Shown here in pieces: positions 5,590 through 38,679 of a stretch of DNA of 57,968 bases. The notes under the pieces are model-generated. The model was not told the DNA's origin. It was given only the letters and a program-made list of their open reading frames with translations, and did no database searches. Position 1 is the first letter of the stretch. Every line of letters starts with the position of its first letter. Both the position numbers and the translations under genes were made by a program. Origin of the DNA: a virus (lineage: Duplodnaviria; Caudoviricetes). The stretch is from IMG/VR virus record IMGVR_UViG_3300034176_000029, positions 1-57,968 of that record. One strand, 5' to 3'.

Positions 5590-5867
5590 GCGCCGACGTT
5601 CAGCACGAACTGACCCACGCCGACTACGTCGACCAGGTCGACCAGCTCCGCGCAGCATTCGCGATCGTCGCCGATTTGGAGGTGGCCGAGATGCGTGCCC
5701 ACCACGACAAGCTCCGAGCCCTCGGGCCGCTGGATCCGGTCGCATGGGCCAAGCACGGCAAGCGCATTCAGGAGGAGCTGTACCTGATCGCGCTCGCTGA
5801 GGACGTGGTTGCGGTGATGGCTCGCCTCGGTTCCCCACCTGATCTCGCGTCGGCGCCCCCCGCCTGA
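5586..5867 (+). CDS. Hypothetical protein
   Basis: GTGA overlap; helical composition. Confidence 0.65.
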   Translation: MSADVQHELTHADYVDQVDQLRAAFAIVADLEVAEMRAHHDKLRALGPLDPVAWAKHGKRIQEELYLIALAEDVVAVMARLGSPPDLASAPPA

Positions 5868-6061
5868 CGCGTCGGGGCCGGCTCCCGGTGTGGGGATCGG
5901 AGCCGGCCCACCAAATCTCCCCGCACCGGATCTGCGACGACGAGGTAGCGGGTGAACGCGGAGTCCGGCCCTTGCTTCCCCGGGGGGCCGGGCACCGCAC
6001 CGAAGAAGAAGGCCCCGGATGAGACCCGGGGCCGCGGACACCGAATCGAAGGAGGGAACCG

Positions 6062-6289
6062 ATGTCCACACCGAGTATCGCAGACTACTTCGAGACCTGC
6101 GAACCGGCCTACCCGTGGGGCGAGCGGTACCAGCTGCACGCCGCCGCCGCAGCCGCCTACAGCCATGTGCTGCAGGGCAGCCGGGCCGAGGTTGAGGCCG
6201 TCCTGAAGGGACTCACCCCGCAGCAGCGCGAGCAGGTCAAGACTGCGGCGGCTGTTCTCGCCGCACTCGCGGGAGAGGTGTCGTCATGA
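6062..6289 (+). CDS. Hypothetical protein
   Basis: Strong RBS AAGGAGGG. Confidence 0.75.
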   Translation: MSTPSIADYFETCEPAYPWGERYQLHAAAAAAYSHVLQGSRAEVEAVLKGLTPQQREQVKTAAAVLAALAGEVSS

Positions 6290-6798
6290 GGTATCGACTG
6301 CCCGAGGTGCTCGGCGGGGGCGAGTACAACGGAACCCCGACGTCGTTCGCCGGCACCGAGTACCGATGCTTCGACGTGGACGGCGTGAACTTCTACGTCC
6401 GACTCGCCGACCTCACGGAAGCTAAGCCACCGCTACCGCCGGAGCCGCCGGTCCGTTCCGTCGTCCTCGCCGAAGCACCGTTCGCCACCCCGGTCGTGTT
6501 CTTCCGTTATCCGAACGGGTGGGCTGAGCCGGCCGGGTCGACGTACTACGACTGGGCCAAGGTCTGCTCGTACGGCACCCCGGTCCGTTACGTGCCGGAC
6601 CCGTTCGCCGAGCCGGTCACGTTGCCGTGGATGGGCATCAGCGACACTTCCGACGAGATCTTCGTCAACAGACACCTCGGCGCTGTCGCCAAATTGGTGT
6701 GGGTGGCGGTAGACGGCACTGAGCGGGCGGTCAAGGCGGACGTGGCCAAGGCGATGGCACGCGCACTGTGGGCGGCTGCCGATGAGGTGGCGTCATGA
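6286..6798 (+). CDS. Hypothetical protein
   Basis: ATGA overlap, GAGGTG RBS. Confidence 0.75.
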   Translation: MRYRLPEVLGGGEYNGTPTSFAGTEYRCFDVDGVNFYVRLADLTEAKPPLPPEPPVRSVVLAEAPFATPVVFFRYPNGWAEPAGSTYYDWAKVCSYGTPVRYVPDPFAEPVTLPWMGISDTSDEIFVNRHLGAVAKLVWVAVDGTERAVKADVAKAMARALWAAADEVAS

Positions 6799-7091
6799 CC
6801 CACACCCACGAAGCCCCCGCCAGCGTCCACTCATCCACCGAACCGCAAACGTTCGTCTCCGTGGCTGTGCGCCGCGCCTGGACCGGCGACATGGGCTGCG
6901 CCGAACAGTGGCTGAGGTACCTCGACGGCGACGACCTGCGTCACGCCTGCACAGTGCTGCGAAGGGTGGCCGTTTTGGCTGAGGCCATCCGGTTCGAAGG
7001 CCTGGCGCAGCGGGTGGTCGCGAGTCAGGGCTACATGGTCACCGGTCCGGCCGGCTCCGCCCACGGCGCGCCTGATTGGAGAGACGAATGA
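6795..7091 (+). CDS. Hypothetical protein
   Basis: ATGA overlap. Confidence 0.7.
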   Translation: MTHTHEAPASVHSSTEPQTFVSVAVRRAWTGDMGCAEQWLRYLDGDDLRHACTVLRRVAVLAEAIRFEGLAQRVVASQGYMVTGPAGSAHGAPDWRDE

Positions 7092-7348
7092 CCGGGTTCG
7101 ATGAGACGCCGCCGCCGTCGTGGCAGGAGATCGCCGAAGGGTTGGCCAACCAACTTCAAGAACTGCGGGAGGAATTGGCAACGGCGCGCACGTTGGCGAA
7201 CGCGACGATCAACGAGTGGCGTCCGGTCATCACTGCAGCCAAGGCATGGCGGGCGCAGTTCAGCAACTCAGCCGACACGAAGCTGCCGCGAATGTGGGCA
7301 CTCATCGAAGCCGTCGACAACCTCACGGCGGATGGCGGTGCCTCATGA
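7088..7348 (+). CDS. Hypothetical coiled-coil protein
   Basis: ATGA overlap. Confidence 0.7.
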   Translation: MTGFDETPPPSWQEIAEGLANQLQELREELATARTLANATINEWRPVITAAKAWRAQFSNSADTKLPRMWALIEAVDNLTADGGAS

Positions 7349-7488
7349 CCCCCACCCCGTCTGCCCGTCTCACCGCCCGTCAGGTGCAGGTTTTGCGCAT
7401 CCTCAACACACCCGCCGGGGTGTATGTGCGCGAGTCGCCGCTGCTGGATGCGGTGGCGTACGCCGAACGGATGAGGAGGCGGCGGTGA
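7345..7488 (+). CDS. Hypothetical protein, 47 aa
   Basis: Overlaps on both sides. Confidence 0.55.
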   Translation: MTPTPSARLTARQVQVLRILNTPAGVYVRESPLLDAVAYAERMRRRR

Positions 7489-8513
7489 CCCCGTACTACG
7501 CCGACGACTCGGTGACGCTGTACCACGGCGGCGCCCTGGATGTCCTGTGCGCGATGCCGAACGGCTCCGTCGACTGCTGCGTTACATCGCCGCCGTACTA
7601 CGGGCTACGGGACTACAGCGTGCCGGGACAACTCGGGCTTGAGCCCATGCCGGCCACGTACGTCTCGCGCATACGGGCTGTGTTCACCGAGGTCCGTCGT
7701 GTGCTGGCCAACGACGGGACCCTGTGGCTCAATCTGGGTGACTCGTATGTCACCAACGGCTCGGGTAGCCGCACCCACCCCGGCTACCTGGGTGGCCGGC
7801 CAAACGCCGTCACCACGCCGCAAGGCTTCGGCGCCAAGCCGGGTGTGCCGAAAAACCTGCTCGGCATTCCGTGGCGGGTGGCGTTCGCGCTTCAAGACGA
7901 CGGTTGGATCTTGCGCAACGCAGTGGTGTGGGACAAGCCGAACGCTATGCCCGAGTCGGTCACGGACAGGCTGGCAACGACGTACGAGCTCGTCTTCCTG
8001 TTCGCGAAGTCACCTCGGTACCACTTCGACCTTGACGCCATCCGCGAACCGCTCCTGTATCCCGATGCCCTCGACGGGACTCGCGTCTTCGGTGGCAAGT
8101 CCAATGGCGCTGGGGGGGTCGGAGCGACGGCCCGGCGGCGTGGAGCTCACCGCAGCGTCTACGGCGCAACCGGAATGCCGGAGCAGACCAACATGGGACC
8201 GACCGGCTCGCGGCACACCCACACCAGCGAGAAGGGCCGCAACCCCGGCGACGTGTGGACTATCCCCACCCAACCGTTCCCCGAGGCGCACTTCGCCGTC
8301 ATGGCGCCAGAGCTGGCACGTCGTCTCGTCGTGACCGGTTGCAAACCAGGCGGCACGGTGCTGGACCCGTTCTGCGGCGTCGGTACGACCGGCATGGTCG
8401 CCGGGCAGAACGGGCGCCGGTTCGTCGGCATCGACATCTCGTCCGAAACGCTGGACCTGGCTCTACGGACGCGCCTGGCGCAGGGCCCGCTGATTGAGGA
8501 GTCAGCGTCATGA
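7485..8513 (+). CDS. Beta-class amino DNA methyltransferase (N4-C or N6-A; SPPY suggests N4-C)
   Basis: VTSPPY motif IV precedes LDPFCGVGTTG motif I; H.A.M motif. Confidence 0.93.
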   Translation: MTPYYADDSVTLYHGGALDVLCAMPNGSVDCCVTSPPYYGLRDYSVPGQLGLEPMPATYVSRIRAVFTEVRRVLANDGTLWLNLGDSYVTNGSGSRTHPGYLGGRPNAVTTPQGFGAKPGVPKNLLGIPWRVAFALQDDGWILRNAVVWDKPNAMPESVTDRLATTYELVFLFAKSPRYHFDLDAIREPLLYPDALDGTRVFGGKSNGAGGVGATARRRGAHRSVYGATGMPEQTNMGPTGSRHTHTSEKGRNPGDVWTIPTQPFPEAHFAVMAPELARRLVVTGCKPGGTVLDPFCGVGTTGMVAGQNGRRFVGIDISSETLDLALRTRLAQGPLIEESAS

Positions 8514-8860
8514 CCGACTTCGAGTTCGCCGCGTCCGTCGCCGTCACCGTGCTGCTGGCGTTCTCCTGCACCCTGTACCTGATCGACCGGTGGGACCAGC
8601 GCAGATCGGCGCGTCAGGCCGTCGTGCTCGCCGACCAGATCGAGGCTGAGCGGGCGTGTGCACTCGCAGACCCGACCGGCATAGACGACGTGGTGGCCGA
8701 GCTGATGGCCAAGCGGGAGCTGGAACCGGCTGAGCCCATCGTCGGCGACACGTTGGTTCTCGTCGGCCCCGGCTTCGTGCATATGCGTTGTCGTAACGCA
8801 CGCAGAGACGCCGGCACACCATGCCCGGAATGCGCTCGGATTTTGGCGGTGAAGCGATGA
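8510..8860 (+). CDS. Membrane-anchored hypothetical protein with Cys pairs
   Basis: N-terminal hydrophobic helix; HxxC..CxxC. Confidence 0.65.
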   Translation: MTDFEFAASVAVTVLLAFSCTLYLIDRWDQRRSARQAVVLADQIEAERACALADPTGIDDVVAELMAKRELEPAEPIVGDTLVLVGPGFVHMRCRNARRDAGTPCPECARILAVKR

Positions 8861-9081
8861 CGGACACCGCGATCGACGTCAAGGTGGCCACCCGGCGGGT
8901 CACCGTCACCTTCATGGATGACCGCGAGGAGACCTTCGTCGGGGTAACGAGCACACACATCGAGGATGGCGTGCTTCGGCTGTTCGGGTACCGCGAAGAG
9001 TTCGGCTATCCGGACGCCATCTACCGAATGTGGGCGCTGCCGCTGGTCGGGATCCGCATGTGGACAAGGGAGCTTAAATGA
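8857..9081 (+). CDS. Hypothetical protein
   Basis: ATGA overlap. Confidence 0.7.
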   Translation: MTDTAIDVKVATRRVTVTFMDDREETFVGVTSTHIEDGVLRLFGYREEFGYPDAIYRMWALPLVGIRMWTRELK

Positions 9082-9464
9082 CCACCTTTCATCTCGGAGA
9101 CCTGCTGTCGGTCACGACTGGCAAGCTCGTCTCACCGTCGCACATTGCCGACGTTCACCGGCTCCTCGACCACATGACCGGCGACGAACTGTTCACCCAC
9201 CAGTTGCCCCGTGCTTTCGACGAATGCCGGCCGGCGCTGCTCGCTCAGTACCCGTTCCTCGCCGAGATCGAAGCGCCTGAGTTCCGCGACGAAGAACACG
9301 TCTGGCACTGGCTGGCTGAGCAGGTTCAGGCGCACGGCGCCGAGTTCGAGGTGCAACCGCTTGACCCGGCGGACCACACCTACATCAGCCCATTCGCAGA
9401 AATCCGGATAATGGCGCCGCACATGACGGTGATCCCGGTCGTCTTGGACGGAGAGCCGTCATGA
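9078..9464 (+). CDS. Conserved phage hypothetical protein
   Basis: LGDLLSVTTG..MTGDELFTHQLPR motif that I recognise from phage proteins. Confidence 0.75.
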   Translation: MTTFHLGDLLSVTTGKLVSPSHIADVHRLLDHMTGDELFTHQLPRAFDECRPALLAQYPFLAEIEAPEFRDEEHVWHWLAEQVQAHGAEFEVQPLDPADHTYISPFAEIRIMAPHMTVIPVVLDGEPS

Positions 9465-10006
9465 TCACCAAAGGGGAACGGGCCGAACTGCGGTCGCTGA
9501 TACGCCAACGATTCAAAGTGCTACGGGCCGACGTGCTGCAACGCGAGTCCGAGCTGTTCGCCGAACTCGAAGACCGCATGAACGAGCGGTACGCCGACGA
9601 CGACAAAGCCTGGGGCGACGTGGCGTTCATCATCGGCGAGGCGTCACGTGAGGCGAACCGTAAGGCCAACGACGCCGTCCGTGGCCTGGTCGGTCGGGAT
9701 GGTTGGCCCGATGAGCATTCGCTGATCCGGGCGGCTGACATCACCTCGATACGGCGCACCGTTGCCACGCCGGCACCTGACCGTGCCCAGTTGCGTCGGC
9801 AAGGACAGGCTCACATCACAGCCACGATCAAGGGCGCCCAGTTGTCGCTTGACCGGCAAGAGGTCGACCTCCTGACCCGTCTCGCAAGCGGAGCACTGGA
9901 GTCCGACGAGGCCCGAGCATTCCTCGGCGAGATCCCCACCGTATCCGCCTTGGTGCCAGCGGATCGGCTCCTCGAGCTGGAGCGCTCACTCAGGGACATG
10001 CCATGA
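9461..10006 (+). CDS. Hypothetical helical protein
   Basis: ATGA overlap. Confidence 0.75.
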   Translation: MITKGERAELRSLIRQRFKVLRADVLQRESELFAELEDRMNERYADDDKAWGDVAFIIGEASREANRKANDAVRGLVGRDGWPDEHSLIRAADITSIRRTVATPAPDRAQLRRQGQAHITATIKGAQLSLDRQEVDLLTRLASGALESDEARAFLGEIPTVSALVPADRLLELERSLRDMP

Positions 10007-26923: not shown

Positions 26924-28483
26924 GTGCCGGACAGTTTGCGTCTGCCTGCCCGCCGCCCTGCTGCGATCACCGCCGCCGCCCAGCCGTACACACCCGACCT
27001 GTGGCAGTCCAGTTCGTTGTTTGGTTCGCGGCCGTGGCAGACCGAGGCGTGGGCCTTCCGCCGGACGATGGGCGAGTTCGGGCAGGCTGTCGACTGGCAG
27101 GCCCGCGCCATGTCCCGCATCCGACTGTTGGCCGCTGAGGTTGTGCCGGGTGGCGACGAACCCGAACCGTTGGATGAGGGTCCGGCCTCGCAGCTGGTTG
27201 AGGACTTTTGCGGCGGCGGACCCAGCCACTCCGCATTCCTCCGCGCGATCACACCTCATCTGCTGATTCCGGGTGAGGGTTGGCTGATCGCCGAACGGGA
27301 CGACCCCCGTCTGCCGTTGGCGGCGTGTGAGTGGGGCATCTTCTCCACCGAATGTGTGCAGGTCCGCGGTGGGGTGTTCTGGGTCCGGGTCGGCGAATCA
27401 CTCTGGCGGCCGCTGCTCCCGGACGCCCTGCCGATGCGGATCTATGAGCCGGACCCGCAATACCCGTGGCTGGCCACGTCGAACGCTGAGGCCGCCGTAC
27501 CCATCTTGCGGCGCATCTTCCTGATCGATTCGCGGATCATCGCCATGATGGTGTCCCGGCTGGCCATGAACGGACTGTTGCTCATCCCGCAGGAGGGCAT
27601 GTTCACGGTGCCGGCGCAGTACATGGAAGCGCCGGATCCGCTGGTGGCCATGTTCATCGACATCGCGGCGAAGAACGTCGCCAACCCCGGCAACGCATCA
27701 GCTGCGATTCCGATCCCGATCCGGTTCACCGCCGACCTGATCGACAAGTGGAAGCTGCTCAAACAGGACGACCCGCTCGACGAATGGCTTCTGAAAGAGC
27801 GGGAGGACGAACTCGGCCGCCTGGGTGACACGTTGGGCATCGCCCGGGAGCGGGTGTCGGGTGGGATGGGTGAGCAGAACCATTGGGGTGCTGCGATCGC
27901 GTCGGAGGAGGAAGTCCGGATCACGTTCGCCTCCCTGGCTGAAACCATCTGCGGGGGTGTTACTAAGGCGTATCTCCACCCCATGCTCCGCAACGCCGGC
28001 CTCAGCCTGGTTGGGCCTAATGGTGGCCGGTTGATTGTCTGGTATGACACGTCCGAACTGACCGCGAAGGTGGACAAGTCGGATGCGGTGGTGAAGGCGT
28101 ATGACCGCCTGGAGGCCAACGGGGCTGCGTTGCGGCGTGAGCTTGGTTTGGACGAGTCGGATGCTCCGGTCGGGGCTGAGCTCGCGGAGATGCTGTGGAA
28201 GAAGTTGGCCGCCACAGAATCGTTGGCACCGACCGCGATCAGTAATCTGATCGGCGCGCAGACTCCGGGGGTGGGTGTGTCGGCTCCCCCAGCCGATGGA
28301 CCCGGTGACGGCGCGGCCCCCCAGCCGCTCGATACACCTGCCCCCGGCCCAAACAATCAACCCCCACGAGCACTTCAGCCTGCCACGAACGAGGTGCCGG
28401 CCAGGATTGCGGCTGCGATGAAAGTTCTCGCGACGGTGAATGGCAACGGTAACGGTCATGCGACTCGTCACCGGCCTAACTGA
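26924..28483 (+). CDS. Portal protein
   Basis: 519 aa; WQTEAW, GEGWL and NHW motifs; first gene of the head operon. Confidence 0.88.
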   Translation: MPDSLRLPARRPAAITAAAQPYTPDLWQSSSLFGSRPWQTEAWAFRRTMGEFGQAVDWQARAMSRIRLLAAEVVPGGDEPEPLDEGPASQLVEDFCGGGPSHSAFLRAITPHLLIPGEGWLIAERDDPRLPLAACEWGIFSTECVQVRGGVFWVRVGESLWRPLLPDALPMRIYEPDPQYPWLATSNAEAAVPILRRIFLIDSRIIAMMVSRLAMNGLLLIPQEGMFTVPAQYMEAPDPLVAMFIDIAAKNVANPGNASAAIPIPIRFTADLIDKWKLLKQDDPLDEWLLKEREDELGRLGDTLGIARERVSGGMGEQNHWGAAIASEEEVRITFASLAETICGGVTKAYLHPMLRNAGLSLVGPNGGRLIVWYDTSELTAKVDKSDAVVKAYDRLEANGAALRRELGLDESDAPVGAELAEMLWKKLAATESLAPTAISNLIGAQTPGVGVSAPPADGPGDGAAPQPLDTPAPGPNNQPPRALQPATNEVPARIAAAMKVLATVNGNGNGHATRHRPN

Positions 28484-31400
28484 CCAGCAGCTCACCGACT
28501 ACGAGCTGCACGCCGAACTCGCCACCGTCGAAGCGCTTCAAAAAGTCGCCGACACCATCGCCGACCGCATCGGCCAAATTCAAGTCGCCTCGGCCCGTGT
28601 CAGGTGGGATGGCTGCCCGTACGGGTTGCACCCGGCGCACGCCGGCCCCTGCACGTTGATTGCAGCCGACGACTTCCCCGACGATGGGTTACCGCCGGGT
28701 CAGCCGTACGTGTCCCCGGATGATTTGGCCGCTATTTCGCCTCTGTGGGCGGAGGCCGCTGCGCAGACGATTCTGCCGGTGGTGGCGGAGGTGTGGCAGG
28801 CCTCGTCCGGATCCGTCTACGCACAACTGGTTGACGCGACAAACATATCGGCGTTGCCGTCAGTCGGCTCACTGGCCGCTGAACAGTACTTAGCGCAGGC
28901 CGCCAACACCTTCGCTGAGGTCGGGGACGACCTGTGGGCCACCGCCCGGACCCAGCTGTTGGAAGGGTTTGAGCAGGGCGAATCCATCCCCCAACTAGCA
29001 GCACGGGTTCGCGGCTCGGCCGGGCTGACCGCGAAGACCGCCACGCTGGTCGCCAGGACGCAGGTGCTTGACGCTTCAAACGCCGGGTCGTATGCAACCG
29101 CGCAAGTGTCCGGACTGGACCTGAACAAAGGCTGGCTCGACACCCCTGACCTGCGGACCAGACCCAGCCACCGGATCGCCGGCGAAACGTACGGCTCCGA
29201 CGATGGCATGATCCCGTTCGGCGACCAATTCACCGTCGGCGGATTCCAGTGCGACCGTCCACACGACCCGGGTCTGCCGGCAGAGGAGCGGTACAACTGC
29301 CGATGCACCTTGGTGTATTCGATGCCCGAGCGGGCCGTCAAACAGGCCGTCAAAGATGCGGAACCGGAACCACCCCTCCCCGGCACCTCCGGTGTGGATG
29401 ACATCGCCGCGCAACAGTCTGCTGAGGTGGAACGGGTTTTCGGCGAGGTTGATGAGGCGTTTAAGGGGTTGGGGTTGCCACCGGTGCGTCCGCCGGGTGG
29501 GTTACCTAGAGGTATCCCGTCACCGCAAGGCATCCCTGGCGGAACGGCGGCAGTCCGGATTGTCCGGCCAGCCATCGCCGCGCCGCGCAGCGTGAAGGAT
29601 CTGCAGGTTGCGTTCCGGGCCGAAGTGCAGCGGGTCACCGGCAGAGACGTCCTCATCCAACTCCCCGACGATGTCTCCCTGGCGACGATGAAGCAGTACG
29701 CCGAAGGTGTCTTGACGGGCATGGAACGGTTCCCCGACACGAAGATCCGTCAGATCGCGTGGTGGTACCGCGAACACGGGCACTATGCGGAGGCTGGGGC
29801 GGATGAGATCCTGTTCAACCGCTGGTGGTCTACGACGGCCCGACGGCCGGCGTTGTTGAAGGCTGTCCGTGGTGATGTGGCCGGGTGGGAGACGCCCGGT
29901 CTGCGAGGTTGGATGCCGCGGGGTTCGGGGTCTCCGGATGCGATCGGTCTTCACGAGTTCGGCCACACCGTTCATCTTGGGTTGGGGGCGGACGCGGCGA
30001 AGGTGTCTTCGCGGGCGTTGACTGCGGTGCAACGCCGGGCTGCGCTCGACGGTGTAACCCCGGATGAGCTGATCTCGAGGGAGATGGGCGCTTACGCGTC
30101 GTCGGACGAGTTTGAGCTCGTGGCGGGTGCGTTCACTGACGCCGTCATCAACGGCCAGTTGGCTTCGCCGTTGTCCCGCGAGATTTACGCCCTGTTGGAG
30201 GACGCATACAGGGCGGGTGGGAAACGCGTTGGTATCACCTCGACTGTGGCGAGGGCGGTGCCGGCGCCTAAGCCTCTGGCGCGGATGACTGTTGCTGAAC
30301 TTCGCACGGAAGCTGGTGCGCGGGGTGTGGTTGTTCCGGCCGGGGCACGGAAAGCAGACATCGTACGGCTACTCGACGAAGGTGTACCGCGGCCGCAACC
30401 TCAGGCTGGTCTTTTGGCGAAGCTCGAAACGAGTCTGACCGCAGACGAACAGGCTCGGGTCACTCGCCTGGTAAATCGTGATCCGCAGATCTTTGCCACA
30501 GTTCAGGACCGGTTCGGGTCGATATCAACTTCGGGCAACCTCGATGCGGCGGATGCCGCATGGCTGCAGCGCATCTATCAGCGTGATCGGGCTTTCGTGG
30601 AGCGCGCAGTTCAAGATGCGAGCATCAAGCAAGAGATCGCTGACGCTGCGAAGAAGGCCGGCCAGACGCCGACTGAATACCGCGCGGCGGCAGCGGCCAA
30701 GCTAAAAGACCTACTAGACGACAAGCCGATTGCGGTTCGCGTTCGCGACGAGGCTGCGCTCCGCGACATCATCTCCGGCGGTCGATTCAAGACTCAACTA
30801 GAGGGCGCGAAGCGGGCGCCAGGGCTAGGGGCAGATCCCGCCAAGCGGCGACTCGGCGAACAGATCCAAGGCGTACCCACCGACCTGGCAGTCGGCGAGC
30901 GGCCGGTCTACGGCTACGTCGCCATCGGCGATATCGAGCCGGCGCTTTCGGCCGGGCGCAGAATCCCGGGCATACGCGAACTTGAGGGCCAAGAAGACGT
31001 CCTGAGCTCCTATGGCCGCGTGCAGGTTGTCCTGAAGCCAGAGGTGCGGGCCAGGACGACGGCGACGGTTGGCGACAGCCTGGACGAGATCGGCTTCCTG
31101 CGCCCCTCGCCGGTCGATGCCCCGACGGCCGAATCTCTCGGATTTCGCACGCTTGACGACGTTTCAAAGCCAGGTTGGACGCGACGCGGCTATGTCGAGG
31201 CGCAGATTCACGGCGGGGTGCGTGCCGATGACATCGCTGCGGTCGTCTTCGCTGAAGCGCCAAACGAGGCCACGATCGCAGCACTGACGCGGCAAGGAAT
31301 CCCGTGGCGGGTGCTGGGTAAGGGCGACTCGCCGCTGCGCCTGGTGGACTTCGGAGTTGCGCCGACGCCGACCGCTACCCGCACTGTCGCCCAACTTCGC

Positions 31401-34112
31401 GCGCTGGCCAAAGAGCGCGGCATTGTGGTGCCGCCCGGCATTCGCAAGCCGGATCTGGTGCGGCTACTCGACGAGGGTGCGCCGGCGCCGCCGCGGGTTG
31501 TGAGGGCGCGTCCCGGTTCGACTATCGGCGACGTCGAGCTCGGCCCGACCGTCGGGCAGGTGGCACTAGGCGATGCCCCGTTGGTCAGGCGCCCCATCGG
31601 TGACTTCGCCGAGCGAGCATATGACGGGCCGACCGGCGTCGTACTCGCTCGCGGTGAACCATTGCCCGCTGGATTCAAGAGCGAACTGCCGGCAATCCGT
31701 CGCGGCGAGTTTGAATTGAGGCCAGGTCTCACCGCGGACGAGAGCCGGGCGCTGGACCGCTACGCTCTGAGTCGCGTCGCGGATCCGCTGAACACCGGTC
31801 TGCGGGAAGGCAGGACGTCCGGCTTCGGCACGGCGAAGATCGTCGATCAGGTTGTCGATCTCGACGAGGAAATGCGGCTATTGGATTCGGCGATTGACGC
31901 CGGACAACTGGCCCGGGACACAGAGCTTTTCCGCGGTGCGCTTATGCGTCCTGCCGACATCGGTAGGCTCCAGGTCGGTGCTATCACTAGCGAGAGCGGC
32001 TACCTGTCCACCGCGACGGAGATGGGCAACGCCTTCCAGATCATCAATTGGCGAGCGCCCGGCGCCCCAGCCGGCCAGTCGCGTGTCGTGTTCAAGATCC
32101 TTACACCGAAGGGCACGCGCGCGGGTATCGGCCACATTGCCGAGCATGAAGTACTGCTAGCGCGTGGCCGCCGGATGCGTGTCGTTGATATTTTGCGACC
32201 AACACAGCGGGGCGACACAAGGGTAATCACGCTCGAGTTGCTGCCGGATGTTTCGACTACGACCGTCACCCGCACGGTCACCCAGTCCACCGCCCGGCAG
32301 AAGCTGATCGACAAGCGACGGCAGACGGCCGACTTCAACGCCGACACACTCGCAGCGCTGCTCGACGCGCAGGTTGACACTGATGTGTTGGTGCGCACGA
32401 TTCAGCAATCCGCCGCCCGCAACGCGATTCCGAAGCGCACTGTCGACTCGCTGGTCACGGCGGCCCGGTCCGGGGATCCGGCCAAGGTTGAGGCCGCGAT
32501 CGCGCGGATCTCCCGTACCGGCAAGGTTCAGCCGCTGGCCCGTACGACGGACATCGTCGCCTTCGACCCGAAGACGATGCAGGCGCTGGAACGGGTCCGG
32601 CCGGGGCAGAAGGTCCGCGTGATACGGCCCGGCCACACGGCTGATGTCAACGGCGAACAAGTGCAACTGTCCAAGTCCGTCGTCGAGGTGCTGTCGGCGC
32701 AGGAGATCCGCGACATTGAGGGCCGGGCGTTGCGCGCGGCGGCGCGCGAGACGAACCGGCTGATCGAAGCCCGTACCGGCACCGCCAAGCTGCTGGCTGA
32801 GGTTGACGAACTCATCTCCAAGGGCGCGTCGAAGGCGACGATCGCGCAACGCCTTGACGTGAAACTGGTCGCGCCGGAGCAGATTTTCGCCGGTGCCGAC
32901 CCGGCTGTCGTCAAGGCGTTGGCGGACGCGCTTGCGTCCGGTGACATGGCCAAGCTGCGCAGTGCGATCACGCGGGCGGGGACGAAGGCGAAGATCAAGC
33001 CGATCTCCCGCGCGGGGGCGAAGGCCAAGTTCGACCCGGATCTGATGGAGCCGTTCGCTGGTGACATTCCGGCCGGGGCGCAGGTGGTTGTGGTGACGCG
33101 TGGCTCGGCGTTGACGCTGCCGGACGGCACCGTTTTGCAGTTGACTAAGGCGCGGGTGCAGCCGGTGCCGGCCAAGGCGGCGGCTAAGTTCCCGCTTTCG
33201 ATCGTCAAGCCGGTTAGGACGAAGACGGCCCGGGCGGTCGAGATCGCGGACGCGAAGAAGAAACTCCCGTCCGCCCGCGCCCGGCTGCGGGACATGTCCG
33301 TAGACAACCCACGCCGGGCCGACCTTGAGCGGCAGATCGCGCACTACCAAGCGGTCATTGACCAGAAACCCGGGCCACACCAGTACAACTGGTCGTCGCC
33401 CAGTTGGGACGAACCGGCATCGGCGGTTGGCAGGTTCGTCACCGAGCCGACCACCGAGCAACTAGCGGCCCACGTGGATTCAATCGTCGGCCCGGCAACC
33501 AGCGGCTGGACAAGATCCGAAGTTGTCCACGAGCTGAACCGGCAAGCCGCGATCACACCACGGACCATGGCCAGCCTACGTACCGTCGGAAAGTCCACGA
33601 CATGGGGCGGAGACGACATCTACGCCGAGTACGACACGGCCTGGCGAGAAATTCGGTTCAGCCCGAAATGGTCTGACCGGGGGAAGTTGGACGAGTCGCT
33701 GCGACGTGGAATCGACACGCATTTCCACCCACCGACGGGCGGCTCCGTGTTTGACTCGGTGACCGCGCACGAGTACGGCCACCACGTCACCTATCGGATA
33801 CTTGAAGCATCCGCAGCGCAACAGCGAAGGGTGGTCGAGGCCGTAGACGAGGCGCTGCGGCTCGACGGATGGCTGGTCAAGCAGTACCGCCGGTCGCCCG
33901 ACCTCCAGGGCGTCATGAACGACTTCCTGGCCTCCTACCTTGCAACCGGACGAGTGGACCGAGTCAGTGGCTACGCCAAGAAAAACTATCAGGAGTTCTT
34001 CGCCGAGGTGTGGTCGGAGTTCACCACCGGCAACCCTCCACGGCCACACATCCGGCGTATCGGTGAGATGATGAGAGATGTGGCGGAGAGCGTAGATACG
34101 GTGCCGCTGTGA
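28458..34112 (+). CDS. Giant MuF-type minor head protein with polyvalent effector domains (two HExxH peptidase-like, DUF3626-like, R-S-E ADP-ribosyltransferase)
   Basis: MuF motifs K.W..D.RTR..H..NCRC; HEFGH at 29952; RPVYG/YVEAQIHG; LFRG..YLST..EHE; HEYGH..EFFAE at 33768-34007. Confidence 0.85.
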   Translation: MRLVTGLTDQQLTDYELHAELATVEALQKVADTIADRIGQIQVASARVRWDGCPYGLHPAHAGPCTLIAADDFPDDGLPPGQPYVSPDDLAAISPLWAEAAAQTILPVVAEVWQASSGSVYAQLVDATNISALPSVGSLAAEQYLAQAANTFAEVGDDLWATARTQLLEGFEQGESIPQLAARVRGSAGLTAKTATLVARTQVLDASNAGSYATAQVSGLDLNKGWLDTPDLRTRPSHRIAGETYGSDDGMIPFGDQFTVGGFQCDRPHDPGLPAEERYNCRCTLVYSMPERAVKQAVKDAEPEPPLPGTSGVDDIAAQQSAEVERVFGEVDEAFKGLGLPPVRPPGGLPRGIPSPQGIPGGTAAVRIVRPAIAAPRSVKDLQVAFRAEVQRVTGRDVLIQLPDDVSLATMKQYAEGVLTGMERFPDTKIRQIAWWYREHGHYAEAGADEILFNRWWSTTARRPALLKAVRGDVAGWETPGLRGWMPRGSGSPDAIGLHEFGHTVHLGLGADAAKVSSRALTAVQRRAALDGVTPDELISREMGAYASSDEFELVAGAFTDAVINGQLASPLSREIYALLEDAYRAGGKRVGITSTVARAVPAPKPLARMTVAELRTEAGARGVVVPAGARKADIVRLLDEGVPRPQPQAGLLAKLETSLTADEQARVTRLVNRDPQIFATVQDRFGSISTSGNLDAADAAWLQRIYQRDRAFVERAVQDASIKQEIADAAKKAGQTPTEYRAAAAAKLKDLLDDKPIAVRVRDEAALRDIISGGRFKTQLEGAKRAPGLGADPAKRRLGEQIQGVPTDLAVGERPVYGYVAIGDIEPALSAGRRIPGIRELEGQEDVLSSYGRVQVVLKPEVRARTTATVGDSLDEIGFLRPSPVDAPTAESLGFRTLDDVSKPGWTRRGYVEAQIHGGVRADDIAAVVFAEAPNEATIAALTRQGIPWRVLGKGDSPLRLVDFGVAPTPTATRTVAQLRALAKERGIVVPPGIRKPDLVRLLDEGAPAPPRVVRARPGSTIGDVELGPTVGQVALGDAPLVRRPIGDFAERAYDGPTGVVLARGEPLPAGFKSELPAIRRGEFELRPGLTADESRALDRYALSRVADPLNTGLREGRTSGFGTAKIVDQVVDLDEEMRLLDSAIDAGQLARDTELFRGALMRPADIGRLQVGAITSESGYLSTATEMGNAFQIINWRAPGAPAGQSRVVFKILTPKGTRAGIGHIAEHEVLLARGRRMRVVDILRPTQRGDTRVITLELLPDVSTTTVTRTVTQSTARQKLIDKRRQTADFNADTLAALLDAQVDTDVLVRTIQQSAARNAIPKRTVDSLVTAARSGDPAKVEAAIARISRTGKVQPLARTTDIVAFDPKTMQALERVRPGQKVRVIRPGHTADVNGEQVQLSKSVVEVLSAQEIRDIEGRALRAAARETNRLIEARTGTAKLLAEVDELISKGASKATIAQRLDVKLVAPEQIFAGADPAVVKALADALASGDMAKLRSAITRAGTKAKIKPISRAGAKAKFDPDLMEPFAGDIPAGAQVVVVTRGSALTLPDGTVLQLTKARVQPVPAKAAAKFPLSIVKPVRTKTARAVEIADAKKKLPSARARLRDMSVDNPRRADLERQIAHYQAVIDQKPGPHQYNWSSPSWDEPASAVGRFVTEPTTEQLAAHVDSIVGPATSGWTRSEVVHELNRQAAITPRTMASLRTVGKSTTWGGDDIYAEYDTAWREIRFSPKWSDRGKLDESLRRGIDTHFHPPTGGSVFDSVTAHEYGHHVTYRILEASAAQQRRVVEAVDEALRLDGWLVKQYRRSPDLQGVMNDFLASYLATGRVDRVSGYAKKNYQEFFAEVWSEFTTGNPPRPHIRRIGEMMRDVAESVDTVPL

Positions 34113-34363
34113 CCGGCCAACTGCCGGCACAGTGCTTCGCCTGCAGTCGACTGATGCCGACCCAGTCTCCGACGGGAACCGTGACCGCCGTCCGGTGTGC
34201 CGCATATCCGGACGACATCCCTGAGGATATTTCGCTGTTCTGCGCCGACCACCGTGTGCCGCGCGGTGACGAGCGCGACGGGCTCGTCTTCGAGCGCGCT
34301 TCCGGTCCTGTCGCCGACGACGCATGGACCTGGTGGACACGGTACGCAGGGAGTTCCCCGTGA
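34109..34363 (+). CDS. Small Cys-motif protein (CxAYPxxIP..DH), candidate MuF-toxin immunity/partner
   Basis: CxxC..CAAYPDDIP..DHR..DGLVFE; coupled to the MuF stop. Confidence 0.75.
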   Translation: MTGQLPAQCFACSRLMPTQSPTGTVTAVRCAAYPDDIPEDISLFCADHRVPRGDERDGLVFERASGPVADDAWTWWTRYAGSSP

Positions 34364-35247
34364 CTTCCCGGGTTCAGTCTCAGTGCACCCCGTCGTGTAC
34401 GAGGTTCCTGTCACCGTTCAACCCGGCCAACACGACTGGCGTGAAGGCGTGCGCCGCTTTTCCGGCGGGGATACCAGAACGGGTGTGGAACAACGAATTG
34501 GATCATCGGGAGCCGATCGACGGCGACCACGGCCTGCGCTGGGAAGCGAACGAAGGCTACGAGTTCCCCACCTATGCGTTCGCCCCGGACGCGTTGGGTG
34601 TGGGGACGGTGGTGGCGGCGGCGGGGGTTACTGGTGAGTTACACACCGGAGCCATGATCGCCCTGATCCCCGCCGACCCGGAAGCGCTCGCCGTCGAGGG
34701 TGGGGAACCGGCCGAAGAACTCCACTGCACGCTCCTGTTCCTGGGCGAAGCGGACAAGGTCGACGACGAACGCCGGACCCAGATCCTGGAGATCTGCCAA
34801 ACCGTCGCCGCCGGCTGGTACGAGTTCGAAGCCGAAGGTTTCTCCCTGGCCATGTTCAACCCCTTGGGTGATGAGCCGTGCATCGTGCTCGGGCTGTCCG
34901 GTGTCGAACTGGCCGACCTGCACGACGACATCGAAGCTGAAATTGAAGCCGACGAGGATCAGCACCAGCCTTGGGTTCCACATATCACCCTGGCGTATAC
35001 CGATGACGCGATGCTGATCGGTGACCTGTTGGACCGTTGCGGCCCGGTCGTGTTTGACAGGCTGCGGGTAGCGTTCGGCGACCAGGTCACAGACATCCCG
35101 TTGGGCGACGAGGAGCCGGATGAGCCCGACGAGGATGACGAACCTGTCGAAGAGCTCCCGGTGGTCGCGTCGCGGGTGCAGTGGGACGGGTGTCCGCGGT
35201 GCAGCAATCCAGTCCACGACGGTCCGTGCACCGCTATGGCGGTCTGA
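34360..35247 (+). CDS. CxAFPxGIP domain fused to a 2H phosphoesterase (Acb1-like)
   Basis: CAAFPAGIP..DHR..GLRWE N-domain; two HxT motifs (HCTL, HITL). Confidence 0.8.
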   Translation: MTSRVQSQCTPSCTRFLSPFNPANTTGVKACAAFPAGIPERVWNNELDHREPIDGDHGLRWEANEGYEFPTYAFAPDALGVGTVVAAAGVTGELHTGAMIALIPADPEALAVEGGEPAEELHCTLLFLGEADKVDDERRTQILEICQTVAAGWYEFEAEGFSLAMFNPLGDEPCIVLGLSGVELADLHDDIEAEIEADEDQHQPWVPHITLAYTDDAMLIGDLLDRCGPVVFDRLRVAFGDQVTDIPLGDEEPDEPDEDDEPVEELPVVASRVQWDGCPRCSNPVHDGPCTAMAV

Positions 35248-35286
35248 GAGGGTTACGATCACCGCAACACTCACGGGGGTGATGTG

Positions 35287-36675
35287 GTGCCGTGGCATGT
35301 AGAAGACGACAACCCTGACTGCCCAGGCTGGGCTGTGGTCAAGGATGATGACGCCTCGGTTGCGGGATGCCATGACACTGAGGCCGAGGCCGACGCCCAG
35401 GTCGAGGCCCTCTATGCCCAAGAGGTAATGGACGGCGGAGCACCTGAGGAGATGTCGGGTACGGCGTGGGCTGGTGTGTTGGCCGTTGAGGGTGAGTGGA
35501 CCGGCGACGGGCGCATGTTCGCCCCCGGCTCCCTCGAGTGGGCTGATCTGCCGCTGCCGTTGAAGTGGCAACCCGCCGAATCGGAAGGCCACACCGGCGC
35601 GGTCATTGTGGGGCGGATCGACACGATCGTCCGGGACGGGAAACTGATCCGCGGCGCCGGGATCATGGACGACGACGGGCAGATGGGTGCTGAAGCGGTC
35701 CGGTTGATGCGTAAGCGGATGCTCCGCGGCACGTCGATCATGGCCGACGATACGGAAGACGAAGACATCGAATTCGTCTACGCCGCCGACGACACGGAAC
35801 CGGTAGAGGCACCCGAGGAGCCGGCCGACGGTGAAGAGGTCGAGGTGGTTCCGTTGGGGCCGTCGAAGATGGTCGTCCACCACGGCCGCATCCGGTCCTC
35901 CACCCTCCTGGCCGAACCAGCGTTCGTCGAGGCCACGATCGAACTCGACGAACTGATGACGGCCGCCGCCTATACGGTAACCATTCCGGAGGTGTGGCCG
36001 GAGTGGTGGTTCCAGGAACCTGCAGAGCAGCCACCGTTCGGCGCGCTGCACATCACCCCCGAAGGCAGAGTTTTCGGCTATCTCGGCCCGGCGAAAGTCC
36101 CCCACCGCGCCTTCCGGGCCTCCGGCCGGTCCATCACGATCCCCCGCGGTGTGGACTACACCGAGTTTCAGAACAAACCGTGTCTGGTGGCTGGGGCGGA
36201 TGGGCATGTCTATCGGATCAACGCTGGGAATGTGACGTTCGACTGCGGCCACCCATCCCCGTACGACACCCGCCGCGAAGACCCCAGTTGGGCGATGCAG
36301 CACTACGACAACTCGTGCAGTGTGGCCGCCAGGATCAGGGTGGGTGAAAACGGCCACGGGACGTGGGTGGCTGGCGGGCTGTTGCACGGCATCACCCCGG
36401 ATGCGTTTGAACGGATGATGGCCTGCGCACTGTCCGGCGATTGGCAGGGCGGCAAGTTGAACGCCGCCTTGCTGGTGCCGGTGGAAGGATTCCCCGTCGC
36501 CGCCGCCAGTATCCGGGTCCGGGACGATGCTCTGGTGGCGTCGACGGTGCCGATCGTGTACGACGCGCCCGGTCCGGGGCCGGACACCCGGGCGACGTTG
36601 GAACGCATCGCCCGCAGCGTCGGCCGAGACGCCACCACCCGGTTCAAACTGCTACGGCAACGGGCCGGGAGGTGA
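35287..36675 (+). CDS. Capsid maturation protease (multi-domain)
   Basis: GDGR, LPLPL, GH..A..VG.I, S.MAD, PAF motifs; between portal/MuF and capsid. Confidence 0.8.
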   Translation: MPWHVEDDNPDCPGWAVVKDDDASVAGCHDTEAEADAQVEALYAQEVMDGGAPEEMSGTAWAGVLAVEGEWTGDGRMFAPGSLEWADLPLPLKWQPAESEGHTGAVIVGRIDTIVRDGKLIRGAGIMDDDGQMGAEAVRLMRKRMLRGTSIMADDTEDEDIEFVYAADDTEPVEAPEEPADGEEVEVVPLGPSKMVVHHGRIRSSTLLAEPAFVEATIELDELMTAAAYTVTIPEVWPEWWFQEPAEQPPFGALHITPEGRVFGYLGPAKVPHRAFRASGRSITIPRGVDYTEFQNKPCLVAGADGHVYRINAGNVTFDCGHPSPYDTRREDPSWAMQHYDNSCSVAARIRVGENGHGTWVAGGLLHGITPDAFERMMACALSGDWQGGKLNAALLVPVEGFPVAAASIRVRDDALVASTVPIVYDAPGPGPDTRATLERIARSVGRDATTRFKLLRQRAGR

Positions 36676-36861: not shown

Positions 36862-38679
36862 ATGGCAAAGACCACGAGCGGCGGCGCTGGCGCCTCGGAC
36901 GCCCCGTTCACACTTCCCGCCGACCTCACAAACCTCACCGGCGAGCAGCTCGAGGAGTTGCGGGTCAAGGCTGAGGCCGAGTTCGACGCAATCTACGACC
37001 AGGACGGCGGACCGCACGCCGACCAACTCGCCCGTGCAACCGAACTTGCCGACGGTTTGGACAAGGTCCGGGAACGGGTGTCGGCGATCGAAACCGCCGC
37101 AGCGGAGACGCAGGCCAAGTTCGACGAGTTGCGTTCCCGCCGCGCACCCGCGGTTGAGGAAGATCCCGAGGCTGAAGAGGTCATCGAGGACCCAGAGCCG
37201 GTGGAGGGCGAAGTCCTCCCCGCCGTGCCGCAGCTCGTGACCGCAGCCGGCAGGCCGCGGGGCGGGGCCGTCACGGCCTCCCGCGACATCGGCGGCCTGT
37301 CCGGACCTAGGCACCGCATCAACCCGTCACTATCCGGGGCGCGTGCTGTCGCACCTGTGCAGGAACCGGGCAAGCTCGAGCTCGCGATCACCGCATCGGT
37401 CGGTCTGCCGGGCCAGTTCGAACCCGGCGCGAAGATCAGTGACATGCGTGCGCTCGGGGATCTGATCGAGAACCGTGCCCGGACCATGGGCGACGCCGGA
37501 GCCGGCAGCAGCCGCCGTAAGCGCAAGGGGTCGGAGCACTGGGGCGGCACGCAGGTCGCGTCCATCCGCAACGAATGGGCCGACAAGCTGTCGGAGACGT
37601 CGACCGCCGACGCGGTGCAGGCCTACATCGAGAAGGTGCAGGGCAACCGGACCGCGTCCAAGTTCGAAACCCTGGTCGCCGGTGGCGGCTGGTGTGCACC
37701 GTCGCAGAACCGGTACGACTTCTTCAACATCGCCTGCGAAGGCGGCGGAATTGACCTGCCCACGTTCGGTGTGGAACGCGGCGGAATCAACTTCCCCGTC
37801 AGCCCAAGCCTGGCGGACACGTTCGTCCCGGCCCTGCCATGGACGGTGCCGTTCAGCAACGCGACGGTGCCGTGGCTGTGGACCGAAACCGACGACATCC
37901 TCACCGTCACCGGGTCCACGAACAAGCCGTGCATCCGGGTGCCCTGTAGCTCGATGACCAACGTCCGGCTGGAGTGCTACGGCATCTGCCTCACCGCCGG
38001 CAACCTGGCCGACAACGCCTGGCCTGAGTCGACCCGCAACTTCCTGCGGCTGCTCATGGCTGCCCATTTCCACGCCGCCAATGCTCGGTACATCGCGCAG
38101 ATCGTCACCGCCGCCGGCACGGCCATCACCGGCTGCACCCCGATCGGCGAAGGCGCCGTCGCGCCGCTGCTCGGAACGGCGGAGATGGGTGCGTGGGACT
38201 ACCGCAGCCGGTTCGGCATGTGCGACGACGACGTGCTCGAATGGATCCTTCCGTCGTGGTCGAAGGGTCTGATCCGGGCCGACCTCGCGAAGCGGACCGG
38301 CGTGTCCGATTTCATGTGCGTGCCGGACGCGGACATTGCCCGCTGGTTCGACTGCCGCAACCTTCGGGTCCAGTTCGTGGACGACTTCCAGGTTCGCTCC
38401 ACCGGCCAGCCCGGTGCCGCGACCGCCATCACCTCCTACCCGGCGGTGGTCAACGGCCTGCTGTATGCGGCCGGGACGGTGGCCCGCGGCAACGGCATGA
38501 CCCTGGACCTGGGTGTCGTGCGGGACTCCACCCTGAACGCGGAGAACGACTTCACCGCGGCGTGGATGGAGGAGTGCCACCTGATCGCCCAGTTCGGGCA
38601 TCAGGTCCGCAATTACCGCATGAACACCTGCCCCGACGGCACCACCGGCGCGAACGACATCACCGGCTGCTGCCCGTAA
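36862..38679 (+). CDS. Major capsid protein with an N-terminal scaffold domain
   Basis: Coiled-coil N-terminus; LVAGGGWCAPS; DSTLNAENDF..W.EE. Confidence 0.9.
   Translation: MAKTTSGGAGASDAPFTLPADLTNLTGEQLEELRVKAEAEFDAIYDQDGGPHADQLARATELADGLDKVRERVSAIETAAAETQAKFDELRSRRAPAVEEDPEAEEVIEDPEPVEGEVLPAVPQLVTAAGRPRGGAVTASRDIGGLSGPRHRINPSLSGARAVAPVQEPGKLELAITASVGLPGQFEPGAKISDMRALGDLIENRARTMGDAGAGSSRRKRKGSEHWGGTQVASIRNEWADKLSETSTADAVQAYIEKVQGNRTASKFETLVAGGGWCAPSQNRYDFFNIACEGGGIDLPTFGVERGGINFPVSPSLADTFVPALPWTVPFSNATVPWLWTETDDILTVTGSTNKPCIRVPCSSMTNVRLECYGICLTAGNLADNAWPESTRNFLRLLMAAHFHAANARYIAQIVTAAGTAITGCTPIGEGAVAPLLGTAEMGAWDYRSRFGMCDDDVLEWILPSWSKGLIRADLAKRTGVSDFMCVPDADIARWFDCRNLRVQFVDDFQVRSTGQPGAATAITSYPAVVNGLLYAAGTVARGNGMTLDLGVVRDSTLNAENDFTAAWMEECHLIAQFGHQVRNYRMNTCPDGTTGANDITGCCP

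Follow-up and report, generated by a model that had tools for sequence, protein, structure and literature searches.

Cys3-His proteins as probable partners of zincin-like metallopeptidases carried by phage MuF head proteins

The stretch of DNA analysed here, in the following called the window, comprises 57,968 bases of a tailed phage (IMG/VR record IMGVR_UViG_3300034176_000029, Caudoviricetes; 64.9% G+C, estimated to be 81% complete). On its plus strand, to which all positions given below refer, the gene of a large MuF head protein is followed by two genes with a common cysteine-rich domain, named Cys3-His in this paper. The first encodes a free copy of the domain (34109-34363, P0001, 84 amino acids), while in the second (34360-35247, P0002, 295 amino acids) a further copy (34360-34584) is fused to a 2H phosphoesterase domain (34636-35121). 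The Cys3-His domain is probably a partner or inhibitor of the zincin-like metallopeptidases which are part of MuF proteins. In the more specific form of this proposal, to which we give slightly less than an even chance, the copies are cognate, immunity-like partners of the peptidases, the free copy of the second zincin domain and the fused copy of the first, and the fused copy possibly acts as a tether for the 2H domain.

Two coupled genes behind a MuF protein with two peptidase domains

Both open reading frames (ORFs) are open and both start within the stop codon region of the preceding gene. The GTG at 34109-34111 overlaps the TGA of the MuF gene (34110-34112), and the GTG at 34360-34362 overlaps the TGA of the free copy (34361-34363). 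A small gene right after a toxin-domain gene, coupled to it in translation by such GTGA overlaps, is the arrangement of a partner gene. The start of P0002 is backed by 26 full-length homologues, all of which open with MT(S/T)R.Q(S/A)QC, and because these begin at GTG 34360 the ATG at 34324 is ruled out as start. A shorter database call for the second gene (P0008, 268 amino acids) finds no backing in the homologue starts.

In BLASTP, P0001 and the first 66 residues of P0002 have 24 of 67 positions in common (36%, E 5e-8). When the whole window was searched in six frames by tblastn, the N-terminus of P0002 was the only non-self match of P0001 below E 0.08 (E 5.5e-7), and the family profile described below matches both copies (E 3.4e-27 and 4.6e-21). 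The reading frames, their GTGA coupling and the paralogy of the two proteins had been noticed in a preliminary description of the sequence and are borne out by these searches. The same is true for the continuation of the second frame into a 2H domain with two HxT motifs, which is recognised by Pfam and in the homologue alignment. Both Cys3-His genes are real late genes of the head module of a high-GC tailed phage.

The MuF protein (28440-34112, 1890 amino acids) is a head protein of the polyvalent or polymorphic-toxin type. Its gene follows directly on the portal protein gene (26924-28483; phrog_776, E 2.7e-87), and its Pfam match to Phage_Mu_F exceeds the cut-off (45.9 bits, cut-off 29.6). 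The order of domains is MuF, zincin-1, HeH, an uncharacterised region, HeH, ADP-ribosyltransferase (ART), a conserved region and zincin-2, or M-Z-A-Z in terms of our own hidden Markov models (HMMs). Besides HeH, Pfam recognises the ART domain as ADPrib_exo_Tox (residues 1095-1263, 31722-32228; 27.1 bits, cut-off 23.4; E 3.2e-6). Zincin-1 (29577-30233) contains HEFGH at residue 505 (29952-29966) and zincin-2 (33414-34106) contains HEYGH at residue 1777 (33768-33782), and the latter domain ends 3 nucleotides (nt) before the free Cys3-His gene. In an alignment of 40 zincin sequences H119, E120, H123 and E194 are invariant and E198 is nearly so; the MuF zincins thus have the HExxH together with a downstream Glu as third zinc ligand. 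The preliminary description had matched the two Cys3-His domains with two peptidase domains or with two ART domains of the MuF protein. Two peptidase domains are indeed present, as judged from the two HExxH sites, while only one ART is found by Pfam and by our own HMM.

A conserved family encoded next to zincin-like peptidases

A word-index search for close relatives of the free copy revealed only four. With a profile made from five sequences, an exhaustive search of 1.84 billion representatives yielded 1482 proteins (clusters) at E<=1e-3, of which 69 reach E<=1e-10, with at least two repeat artefacts (P0128, P0144) among the top rows. The motif CxxC...CxA(F/Y)P..IP...H is present in 129 of the 145 new proteins listed, and 17 of these contain it at least twice. 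The majority of the family members are solo proteins of 60-100 amino acids. In the alignment of 67 members C9, C12, C30, A32, P34 and P38 are invariant, and I37, D47, H48 and G58 are nearly so. The shared domain of about 65 residues is acidic (median isoelectric point (pI) 5.07, pI below 7 in 57 of the 67, median net charge -4) and has four conserved Cys/His ligands (C9, C12, C30, H48), a pattern which suggests that it holds one structural zinc.

The AlphaFold2 model of the free copy reached a predicted local distance difference test score (pLDDT) of 92.4. Foldseek found no neighbour of this model in the PDB at E<=1e-3 and VIA-align none at Z>=2 among 48,161 chains, which indicates no similarity to a known zinc-binding fold. 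The only matches in BFVD were two uncharacterised phage proteins of about 65 amino acids (E 0.024 and 0.18), and those in the ESM Atlas were unnamed viral clusters with scores of at most 0.87. Pfam, PHROG and NCBIfam have no match to the free copy, and Pfam has none to four other solo or tandem members. These data bear on the explanation that the domain is a nucleic-acid-binding zinc finger, which would regulate late genes or bind DNA ends in the head. The four-ligand Cys/His pattern and the small size would suit such a finger, and DNA binding has been ascribed to MuF proteins of the SPP1 type. However, the family is acidic and no zinc ribbon or zinc finger fold of the PDB is matched, so that we regard a nucleic-acid-binding role as extremely improbable.

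The family is widespread. A single peptide pattern led to 247 confirmed stretches in IMG/VR, and the 80 loci kept from these span 34-74% G+C; 172 confirmed stretches were found in GTDB genomes. When 50,697 GenBank phages were searched by tblastn, three high-GC members gave nothing useful (one match of E 0.9, otherwise none), and low-GC members gave 6 and 7 records. A degenerate DNA pattern for DHR.PRGDE returned 7 stretches, of which one contains a true family member. Among 80 GTDB loci the bacterial titles include Actinomadura, Nonomuraea, Streptomyces, Planctomycetota, Chloroflexota, Armatimonadota, Bacillota and Pseudomonadota, and the archaeal ones Methanospirillum, Methanolobus, Methanoregula and Methanosarcinales. 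A literature search returned no description of the domain; the supplements of Iyer et al. 2017 and Jamet et al. 2017 lay outside this search and may hold it. Neither the family nor its association with zincins of phages appears to have been described.

Genomic context was analysed in 80 of the 247 IMG/VR stretches, chosen by the Cys3-His domain alone, and in 80 of the 172 GTDB stretches. The zincin HMMs were built from the two HExxH regions of the window MuF protein and iterated on the fetched loci. In the viral loci a long ORF directly precedes the Cys3-His gene, and the two often overlap by 4 nt. The domain before the first Cys3-His gene is a zincin within 150 nt in 38 of the 80 viral loci and a zincin farther away in 14. 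In 18 loci it is a domain of the pattern E..HNHP..S.S..D within 150 nt (HNHP domain), in six an ART within 150 nt, and in four another domain or none. In the prokaryotic genome loci an HNHP domain is adjacent in 15, a zincin in 13 and an ART in three cases. Among the 49 upstream neighbours scanned by Pfam, which are those shorter than about 950 amino acids, 26 match Phage_Mu_F, two Phage_min_cap2, two portal families and two ATLF (E 1.8e-4); 21 other unique upstream neighbours (16 longer than 1000 amino acids and five near-duplicates or fragments) were covered by our own HMMs only. Downstream neighbours, scanned with five of 66 left out, match PHROGs for scaffold, maturation protease and major head proteins.

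The HNHP domain comprises the C-terminal 200 or so amino acids of the ORF upstream of the Cys3-His gene and has an invariant E, G, HNHP, S.S..D and Y. It was seen in L095, L103, L107, L117, L120, L134, L138, L145, L159, L161, L111 and L086 (L numbers denote our loci, P numbers proteins). Pfam gave no match in six of seven such proteins scanned individually, and a PDB profile search gave spurious repeat matches only. The domain may resemble metallo-enzymes of the RadC/JAB kind, with their pattern E...HxH...S..D. Cys3-His family members are also present in records with methanogen titles (L172, L173, L179, L182, L184, L186, L188, L190, L196, L197, L202, L203, L212, L214, L244, L250). In the archaeal loci L173, L179 and L244 a MuF-HNHP protein is encoded upstream of the Cys3-His gene, which points to MuF-type effector modules in archaeal tailed proviruses.

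Two cultured phages carry the family. In the Mu-like Flavobacterium phage lotta8-1 gp28, a MuF protein with a zincin (HEFGH), is followed by gp29, a Cys3-His protein of 66 amino acids. In Brevibacillus phage Jenst gp075, a 'virion structural protein' of 373 amino acids, contains a zincin and has no MuF match. It is encoded amid DNA-metabolism genes outside the head module, and the Cys3-His protein gp077 follows one small gene later. The gene in between, gp076 (L252 5761-5970), encodes a Cys-containing hypothetical protein of 69 amino acids without a match to the family HMM. In the genome loci L175 and L249 zincin and Cys3-His genes alternate twice (Z, c, Z, c), and three to six Cys3-His genes stand in tandem in L180, L191 and L237. 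Such arrays may be compared to the poly-immunity arrays of polymorphic toxins. Further tandem arrays are present in L204 and L101; the number of copies is six in L191, a Fimbriimonadaceae metagenome-assembled genome, and four in the viral contig L101.

Co-occurrence was assessed in 80 of 228 IMG/VR stretches which were chosen by the 2H domain alone, blind to zincin and Cys3-His domain. The Cys3-His domain is present in 11 of the 12 loci with a zincin, L064 being the exception, and in none of the 68 loci without one. An ART is present in 24 and a recognisable MuF domain in 38 of the 68 zincin-free loci. Only 7 HExxH strings occur in their 332,699 residues, which is about the chance number, and none of these is plausible; the zincin negatives are therefore not a blind spot of the HMM. 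The suspected link between the Cys3-His family and the domain types of MuF proteins is supported in so far as its distribution follows the zincin.

This distribution also speaks against the ART as target, which the preliminary description had kept as a second choice. According to that explanation the two Cys3-His domains would be immunity proteins for the ART, and the 2H domain an enzymatic immunity protein which reverses or processes the ART product, similar to Bsi and BAH of Bxa. A binder and an enzyme are indeed described as the immunity pair behind a prophage MuF-type ART toxin (PMC11699363), and an ART lies directly upstream of the Cys3-His domain in 6 of 80 viral and 3 of 80 genome loci. 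However, none of the 24 loci with an ART but no zincin carries the Cys3-His domain. The ART label changes 16 times on the 2H domain tree and the Cys3-His domain follows none of these changes, 52 of the 80 2H-selected loci have a 2H domain without an ART, and in the window a single ART faces two Cys3-His domains. Moreover, we know of no 2H activity that removes ADP-ribose from proteins. Immunity against the ART is very improbable.

A comparison with the closest relative, L004, shows that zincin and Cys3-His gene are exchanged together. The flanking DNA of the two phages is 81-87% identical and the 2H protein 91% identical. Nevertheless L004 has no counterpart of window positions 33183-34360, which hold the end of the MuF gene with zincin-2 and the free Cys3-His gene, and contains a different MuF C-terminus and an unrelated ORF of 75 amino acids instead. 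With a slash between genes, the architecture is M-Z / c-H in L004 and M-Z-A-Z / c / c-H in the window. The Cys3-His gene is thus exchanged or co-inherited with the MuF protein's C-terminal domain, as seen in L004 and in the co-occurrence of 11 of 12 versus 0 of 68, with few independent contrasts. The giant MuF proteins themselves are shuffled: window residues 665-961 resemble residues 1415-1708 at the C-terminus of the L004 protein (4651-9774), and residues 1275-1580 resemble L004 residues 1095-1400. The shuffled blocks are bordered by two motifs of the HeH/SAP kind, near residues 616-647 and 982-1007.

The subtypes of the two domains also go together. All loci with a Cys3-His domain of at least 60 bits to the fused-copy type have a zincin of at least 63 bits to zincin-1. 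In L126 and L136 the fused-type Cys3-His domain and the zincin-1-type domain are encoded directly adjacent as separate genes, and L102 contains the same adjacent pair with a Cys3-His domain of only 47 bits and a zincin of 75. The only clearly P0001-like copy elsewhere is found in L019 (49 versus 10 bits), where its gene starts 3 nt after a zincin which scores weakly higher to zincin-2 (14 versus 6). The ORF that ends in this zincin (L019 5148-12716, 2523 amino acids) also contains a 2H domain. The idea of two separate partners is upheld by the locus comparison, with the free copy and zincin-2 jointly absent in L004 and the fused type tracking zincin-1.

Two other explanations are concerned by the same data. 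The first takes the Cys3-His domain for a general head-assembly, capsid-targeting or chaperone module which binds MuF, portal or scaffold proteins and not the peptidase. Its nearness to the zincin would then reflect that the zincin is the commonest C-terminal domain of such MuF proteins, and among the hub domains of polyvalent proteins zincin metallopeptidases (MPTases) are described as the commonest (PMC5512222). The conserved surface motifs, the fusion to several kinds of packaged proteins and, in 24 of 80 viral loci, the position after a MuF protein with HNHP or ART at its end agree with this explanation. It does not account for the 38 2H-selected loci with a MuF domain and no zincin (15 of them with an ART), none of which has the Cys3-His domain. 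Neither does it explain the Jenst gene, which lies near a zincin protein without MuF match and outside the head module, the alternating genes of L175 and L249, or the joint loss of zincin-2 and free copy in L004, where the MuF protein is kept. We regard a general head-assembly factor as unlikely.

The second supposes that the Cys3-His proteins are ejected effectors themselves, for example zinc proteins which bind a host factor, that they have no interaction with the zincin and that the 2H fusion is one more polyvalent combination. Solo polyvalent-protein domains encoded near virion genes have been described as likely early-invasion factors (PMC5512222), the motifs are conserved and not diversifying, and multi-copy arrays exist. 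Against this, the genes are tightly adjacent to the zincin and behave as a cassette with it, and no MuF or other known packaging domain was found in the free forms of 60-90 amino acids. An effector role of this kind is improbable.

Binding, inhibition or docking

The complex of zincin-2 and the free copy, the one pair for which the multimer check was run, was predicted from alignments of 40 and 67 rows, respectively. The ipSAE score was 0.50 (0.48, 0.51 and 0.50 in three runs) and that of the best of three controls 0.00, which is classed as weak support for the pairing that had been suspected. Of 80 solved complexes 58 pass the mark applied, as do 2 of 110 mismatched pairs. Agreement between the runs covers at least 71% of contacts, the partner pLDDT is at least 81, and no interface was reported. 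Given the genomic prior, the score raises the odds of the predicted binding a little; it says nothing on inhibition.

In the mechanism proposed here, the Cys3-His domain would bind the zincin-like peptidase domain (HExxH...E) encoded just upstream. The free copy would be the cognate partner of zincin-2, acting as an immunity-like inhibitor or safety catch during synthesis and assembly. The fused copy would be the cognate partner of zincin-1 and may thereby tether the LigT-type 2H domain to the MuF protein. A 2H domain tethered in this way would be packaged and then ejected with the DNA, and would correspond, without a covalent bond, to the MuF-2H fusions of many related phages. Its predicted activity is the hydrolysis of 2',3'-cyclic or 2'-5' phosphodiesters, either in nucleotide immune signals or at RNA ends. 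Small proteins and prodomains that act on zinc metallopeptidases are well known, among them cysteine-switch prodomains, tissue inhibitors of metalloproteinases (TIMPs) and SMPI of Streptomyces. The Cys3-His domain would resemble these in being a small Cys protein for which binding and silencing of a zinc peptidase is proposed, but has no similarity to them in sequence or fold.

Several observations weigh against this interpretation. In a Pfam scan of the MuF protein (E<=0.1) the HExxH domains match neither MPTase-PolyVal nor any peptidase family, and the zincin, ART, MuF and HNHP HMMs derive from the loci analysed here, which limits their reach to distant versions. The Cys3-His domain is not exclusive to the zincin, as the 18 HNHP and six ART domains directly upstream in the 80 viral loci demonstrate, and 44 of the 80 prokaryotic genome loci have no upstream domain that our HMMs recognise. 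The surface motifs AFP.GIP and DHR.P..GD.G are strongly conserved, which is unusual for diversifying immunity proteins and may indicate that the target is conserved and not a variable peptidase. The co-occurrence also clusters by phylogeny: on the tree of 2H domains five changes are needed for the zincin label and four for the Cys3-His label, with one independent contrast on well-supported branches and five on all branches, too few for a significance test. The numbers of copies do not match either, with two zincins and one Cys3-His domain in L005 and L006, four and one in L109, and one and four in L101. Of the earlier notion of two Cys3-His domains for two peptidases the association with the zincin is therefore retained, whereas a general one-to-one rule is not. 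The tracking of subtypes may stem from shared ancestry, at least in part. The complex score lies in a weak band, since values up to 0.60 comprise only 7 of the 80 solved complexes but both of the mismatched pairs that passed. Finally, the presence of either Cys3-His protein in the virion is a prediction.

The role of such a partner may be inhibiting (immunity-like), activating or one of docking only, and the fusions make docking attractive. P0147 combines the Cys3-His domain with PG_binding_1 and an ART. In P0143 it is followed by a C-terminus which resembles the protease ORF of the window by eye and has no Pfam match. Two Cys3-His domains stand at the end of a MuF protein in P0167 and at the end of a HEFTH protein in P0265. 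These fusions to packaged kinds of protein are consistent with co-packaging. A bolder version, which we consider rather unlikely, is that of a regulatory subunit without fold relatives, spread over viruses at large, which controls injected metallo-enzymes of the zincin and HNHP type and at the same time acts as a non-covalent docking tag. If it were true, fused cargo (2H, ART, peptidoglycan-binding domain, capsid protease) would be loaded on the MuF peptidase and carried into the capsid and the next host. The tag would then be a plug-in, modular alternative to covalent MuF fusions, in use from Actinomycetota to methanogenic archaea.

Small genes behind MuF genes have been reported before. Jamet et al. 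2017 (PMC5576092) found small ORFs, presumed to encode immunity proteins, behind 89.4% of 191 MuF toxin genes; metallopeptidases make up 20% of the toxins, and the passages concerned describe no family. Alexei et al. 2024 (PMC11699363) report that the prophage MuF-type ART toxin Bxa is neutralised by a binder (Bsi) and an enzyme (BAH). The locus analysed here resembles these systems in the small gene right after a MuF protein with C-terminal toxin or enzyme domains, in the exchange of the C-terminal domain and the next gene as a cassette, in the tandem arrays and, as for Bxa, in two downstream proteins of which one bears an enzyme. It differs in that the small genes form one conserved family over bacterial and archaeal viruses and are not unrelated short ORFs, that this family is tied mainly to the zincin and not to nucleases or ART, and that fusion of its members to packaged proteins is frequent. 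A 2H phosphoesterase takes the place of the ADP-ribosylhydrolase found with Bxa, whose neutralisation is shown, whereas here neutralisation is a prediction.

A giant MuF protein with MPTase, ART and DNA-binding-type modules in a late cluster, and with more than one MPTase per polypeptide, also agrees with the polyvalent proteins of Iyer et al. 2017 (PMC5512222). According to that paper an uncharacterised domain, LPD28, associates with an MPTase. Unlike the LPDs the Cys3-His partner is mostly a separate gene and not a domain of a polyprotein. No LPD family of Pfam matches it; it may still be identical with LPD28 or another LPD.

The 2H phosphoesterase and the remaining head module

The 2H domain of P0002 matches 2_5_RNA_ligase2 (PF13563, 36.5 bits, cut-off 27) and LigT_PEase (PF02834, 26.1 bits, cut-off 23.3) in Pfam. 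Its HxT motifs are H122-C-T124 (34723-34731) and H208-I-T210 (34981-34989), and in 27 homologues H122, T124 and H208 show no variation and T210 hardly any. The 2H region was modelled with a block pLDDT of 86-96. The best Foldseek match is 1vdx (E 3.6e-8), which is also matched by PDB profile (E 0.0022), and E. coli LigT (5ldm) follows at E 3.2e-6. The fold and profile neighbours comprise LigT-type 2',3'-cyclic phosphodiesterases (1vdx, 1iuh, E. coli LigT), the plant cyclic phosphodiesterase (CPDase) and Usb1. With 41.1 bits the equivalog model TIGR02258 stays under its cut-off of 65.7, so that P0002 is not an orthologue of cellular LigT/ThpR.

The domain had at first been called Acb1-like, which does not hold as a family assignment. 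The Pfam model Acb1 (PF23474) scores 17.5 bits with a cut-off of 27, and the Acb1 structure 7t27 reaches rank 20 in Foldseek (E 3.5e-5), behind LigT-type enzymes, plant CPDase and Usb1. A precomputed PF23474 label was present on 3 of 120 homologues. The 2H domain is a LigT-like member of the 2H superfamily and not a member of the Acb1 family. A literature search returned no paper on the structure of the phosphodiesterase of Burkholderia phage BCSR5.

This 2H domain is common in related phages. It occurs in 293 GenBank actinophage records, where the homologues are often annotated as 'RNA ligase' or lie within a 'capsid maturation protease and MuF-like fusion protein', and IMG/VR has 228 confirmed stretches with it. 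The architectures seen most often in the 80 2H-selected loci are a MuF domain fused to 2H and a MuF gene with 2H behind it. For 2H domains linked to MuF or portal proteins, Iyer et al. (2017, PMC5512222; 2022, PMC9503650) proposed that they are packaged and injected and that they degrade nucleotide signals or act as RNases. The P0002 domain agrees with these and with Acb1 in the 2H fold, the two HxT motifs, the position in the head module and the predicted injection and breakdown of nucleotide signals. It differs in that its link to the MuF protein would be non-covalent via the Cys3-His domain and, from Acb1 (PF23474, 7t27), in the Pfam score below the cut-off and the closer structural similarity to LigT-type enzymes. 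A role against cyclic-oligonucleotide-based anti-phage signalling systems (CBASS) or type III CRISPR and the packaging of the 2H protein into the capsid, both suspected earlier, are plausible by analogy to this published prediction. P0002 adds one example to it and is not new in this respect.

For the 2H domain alone there is a further explanation, namely an enzyme for RNA repair or RNA ends in the producing cell, for instance for tRNA cut by host anticodon nucleases, and not an injected degrader of signals. The nearest structures and profiles, LigT and 2',3'-cyclic phosphodiesterases, and the many homologue records with the title 'RNA ligase' would fit such a function. Its position in the head module and the frequent fusion to MuF or capsid protease argue against it, and according to the account of Iyer et al. 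(PMC5512222) these 2H versions never associate with RNA ligases. RNA repair in the producing cell is a distinctly unlikely function.

In L046 and L047 (9857-10255, 10132-11034) the Cys3-His and 2H domains lie in different, overlapping frames and not in one ORF, which may result from a frameshift, an error in sequencing or a genuine split. After an acidic linker P0002 ends in a CCHC knuckle, W.GCPRC....H.G.C (35167-35232), which was absent from the preliminary description. It is conserved in 27 homologues with R272, G277, C278, H286, G288 and C290 invariant. These C-terminal 22 residues match residues 51-72 or so of the MuF protein (28590-28655; tblastn E 6.7e-7, knuckle HMM E 5.1e-10), where a knuckle of the type C..H..H...C lies near the N-terminus. 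Over about 22 residues the MuF copy is spaced C....H..H...C and the copy of the 2H protein C..C....H...C, and VAS.R precedes each. A regular expression for the MuF copy matches in the window and in L004 only. The common knuckle could serve as a docking, targeting or processing signal.

Behind P0002 follows a gene of the capsid maturation protease or scaffold type (35284-36675; phrog_859, E 9.3e-68; phrog_18402, E 1.5e-17), whose N-terminus (35284-35420, ..DNPDCPGW..20 aa..GCHD..) resembles another small Cys/His motif. The next ORF (36862-38679, 605 amino acids) stands where the major capsid gene would be expected.

Effectors linked to MuF, like polyvalent proteins, are believed to act before all other phage proteins in a newly infected cell. 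The results presented here bear on the questions of how the peptidase domains of MuF proteins are restrained and how unfused cargo gets into capsids. One conserved partner family which tracks the peptidases over bacterial and archaeal viruses would be a concrete handle on both, with lotta8-1 and Jenst as cultured carriers. It would also annotate more than 1000 'hypothetical' protein clusters and mark head modules with active metallopeptidase effectors.

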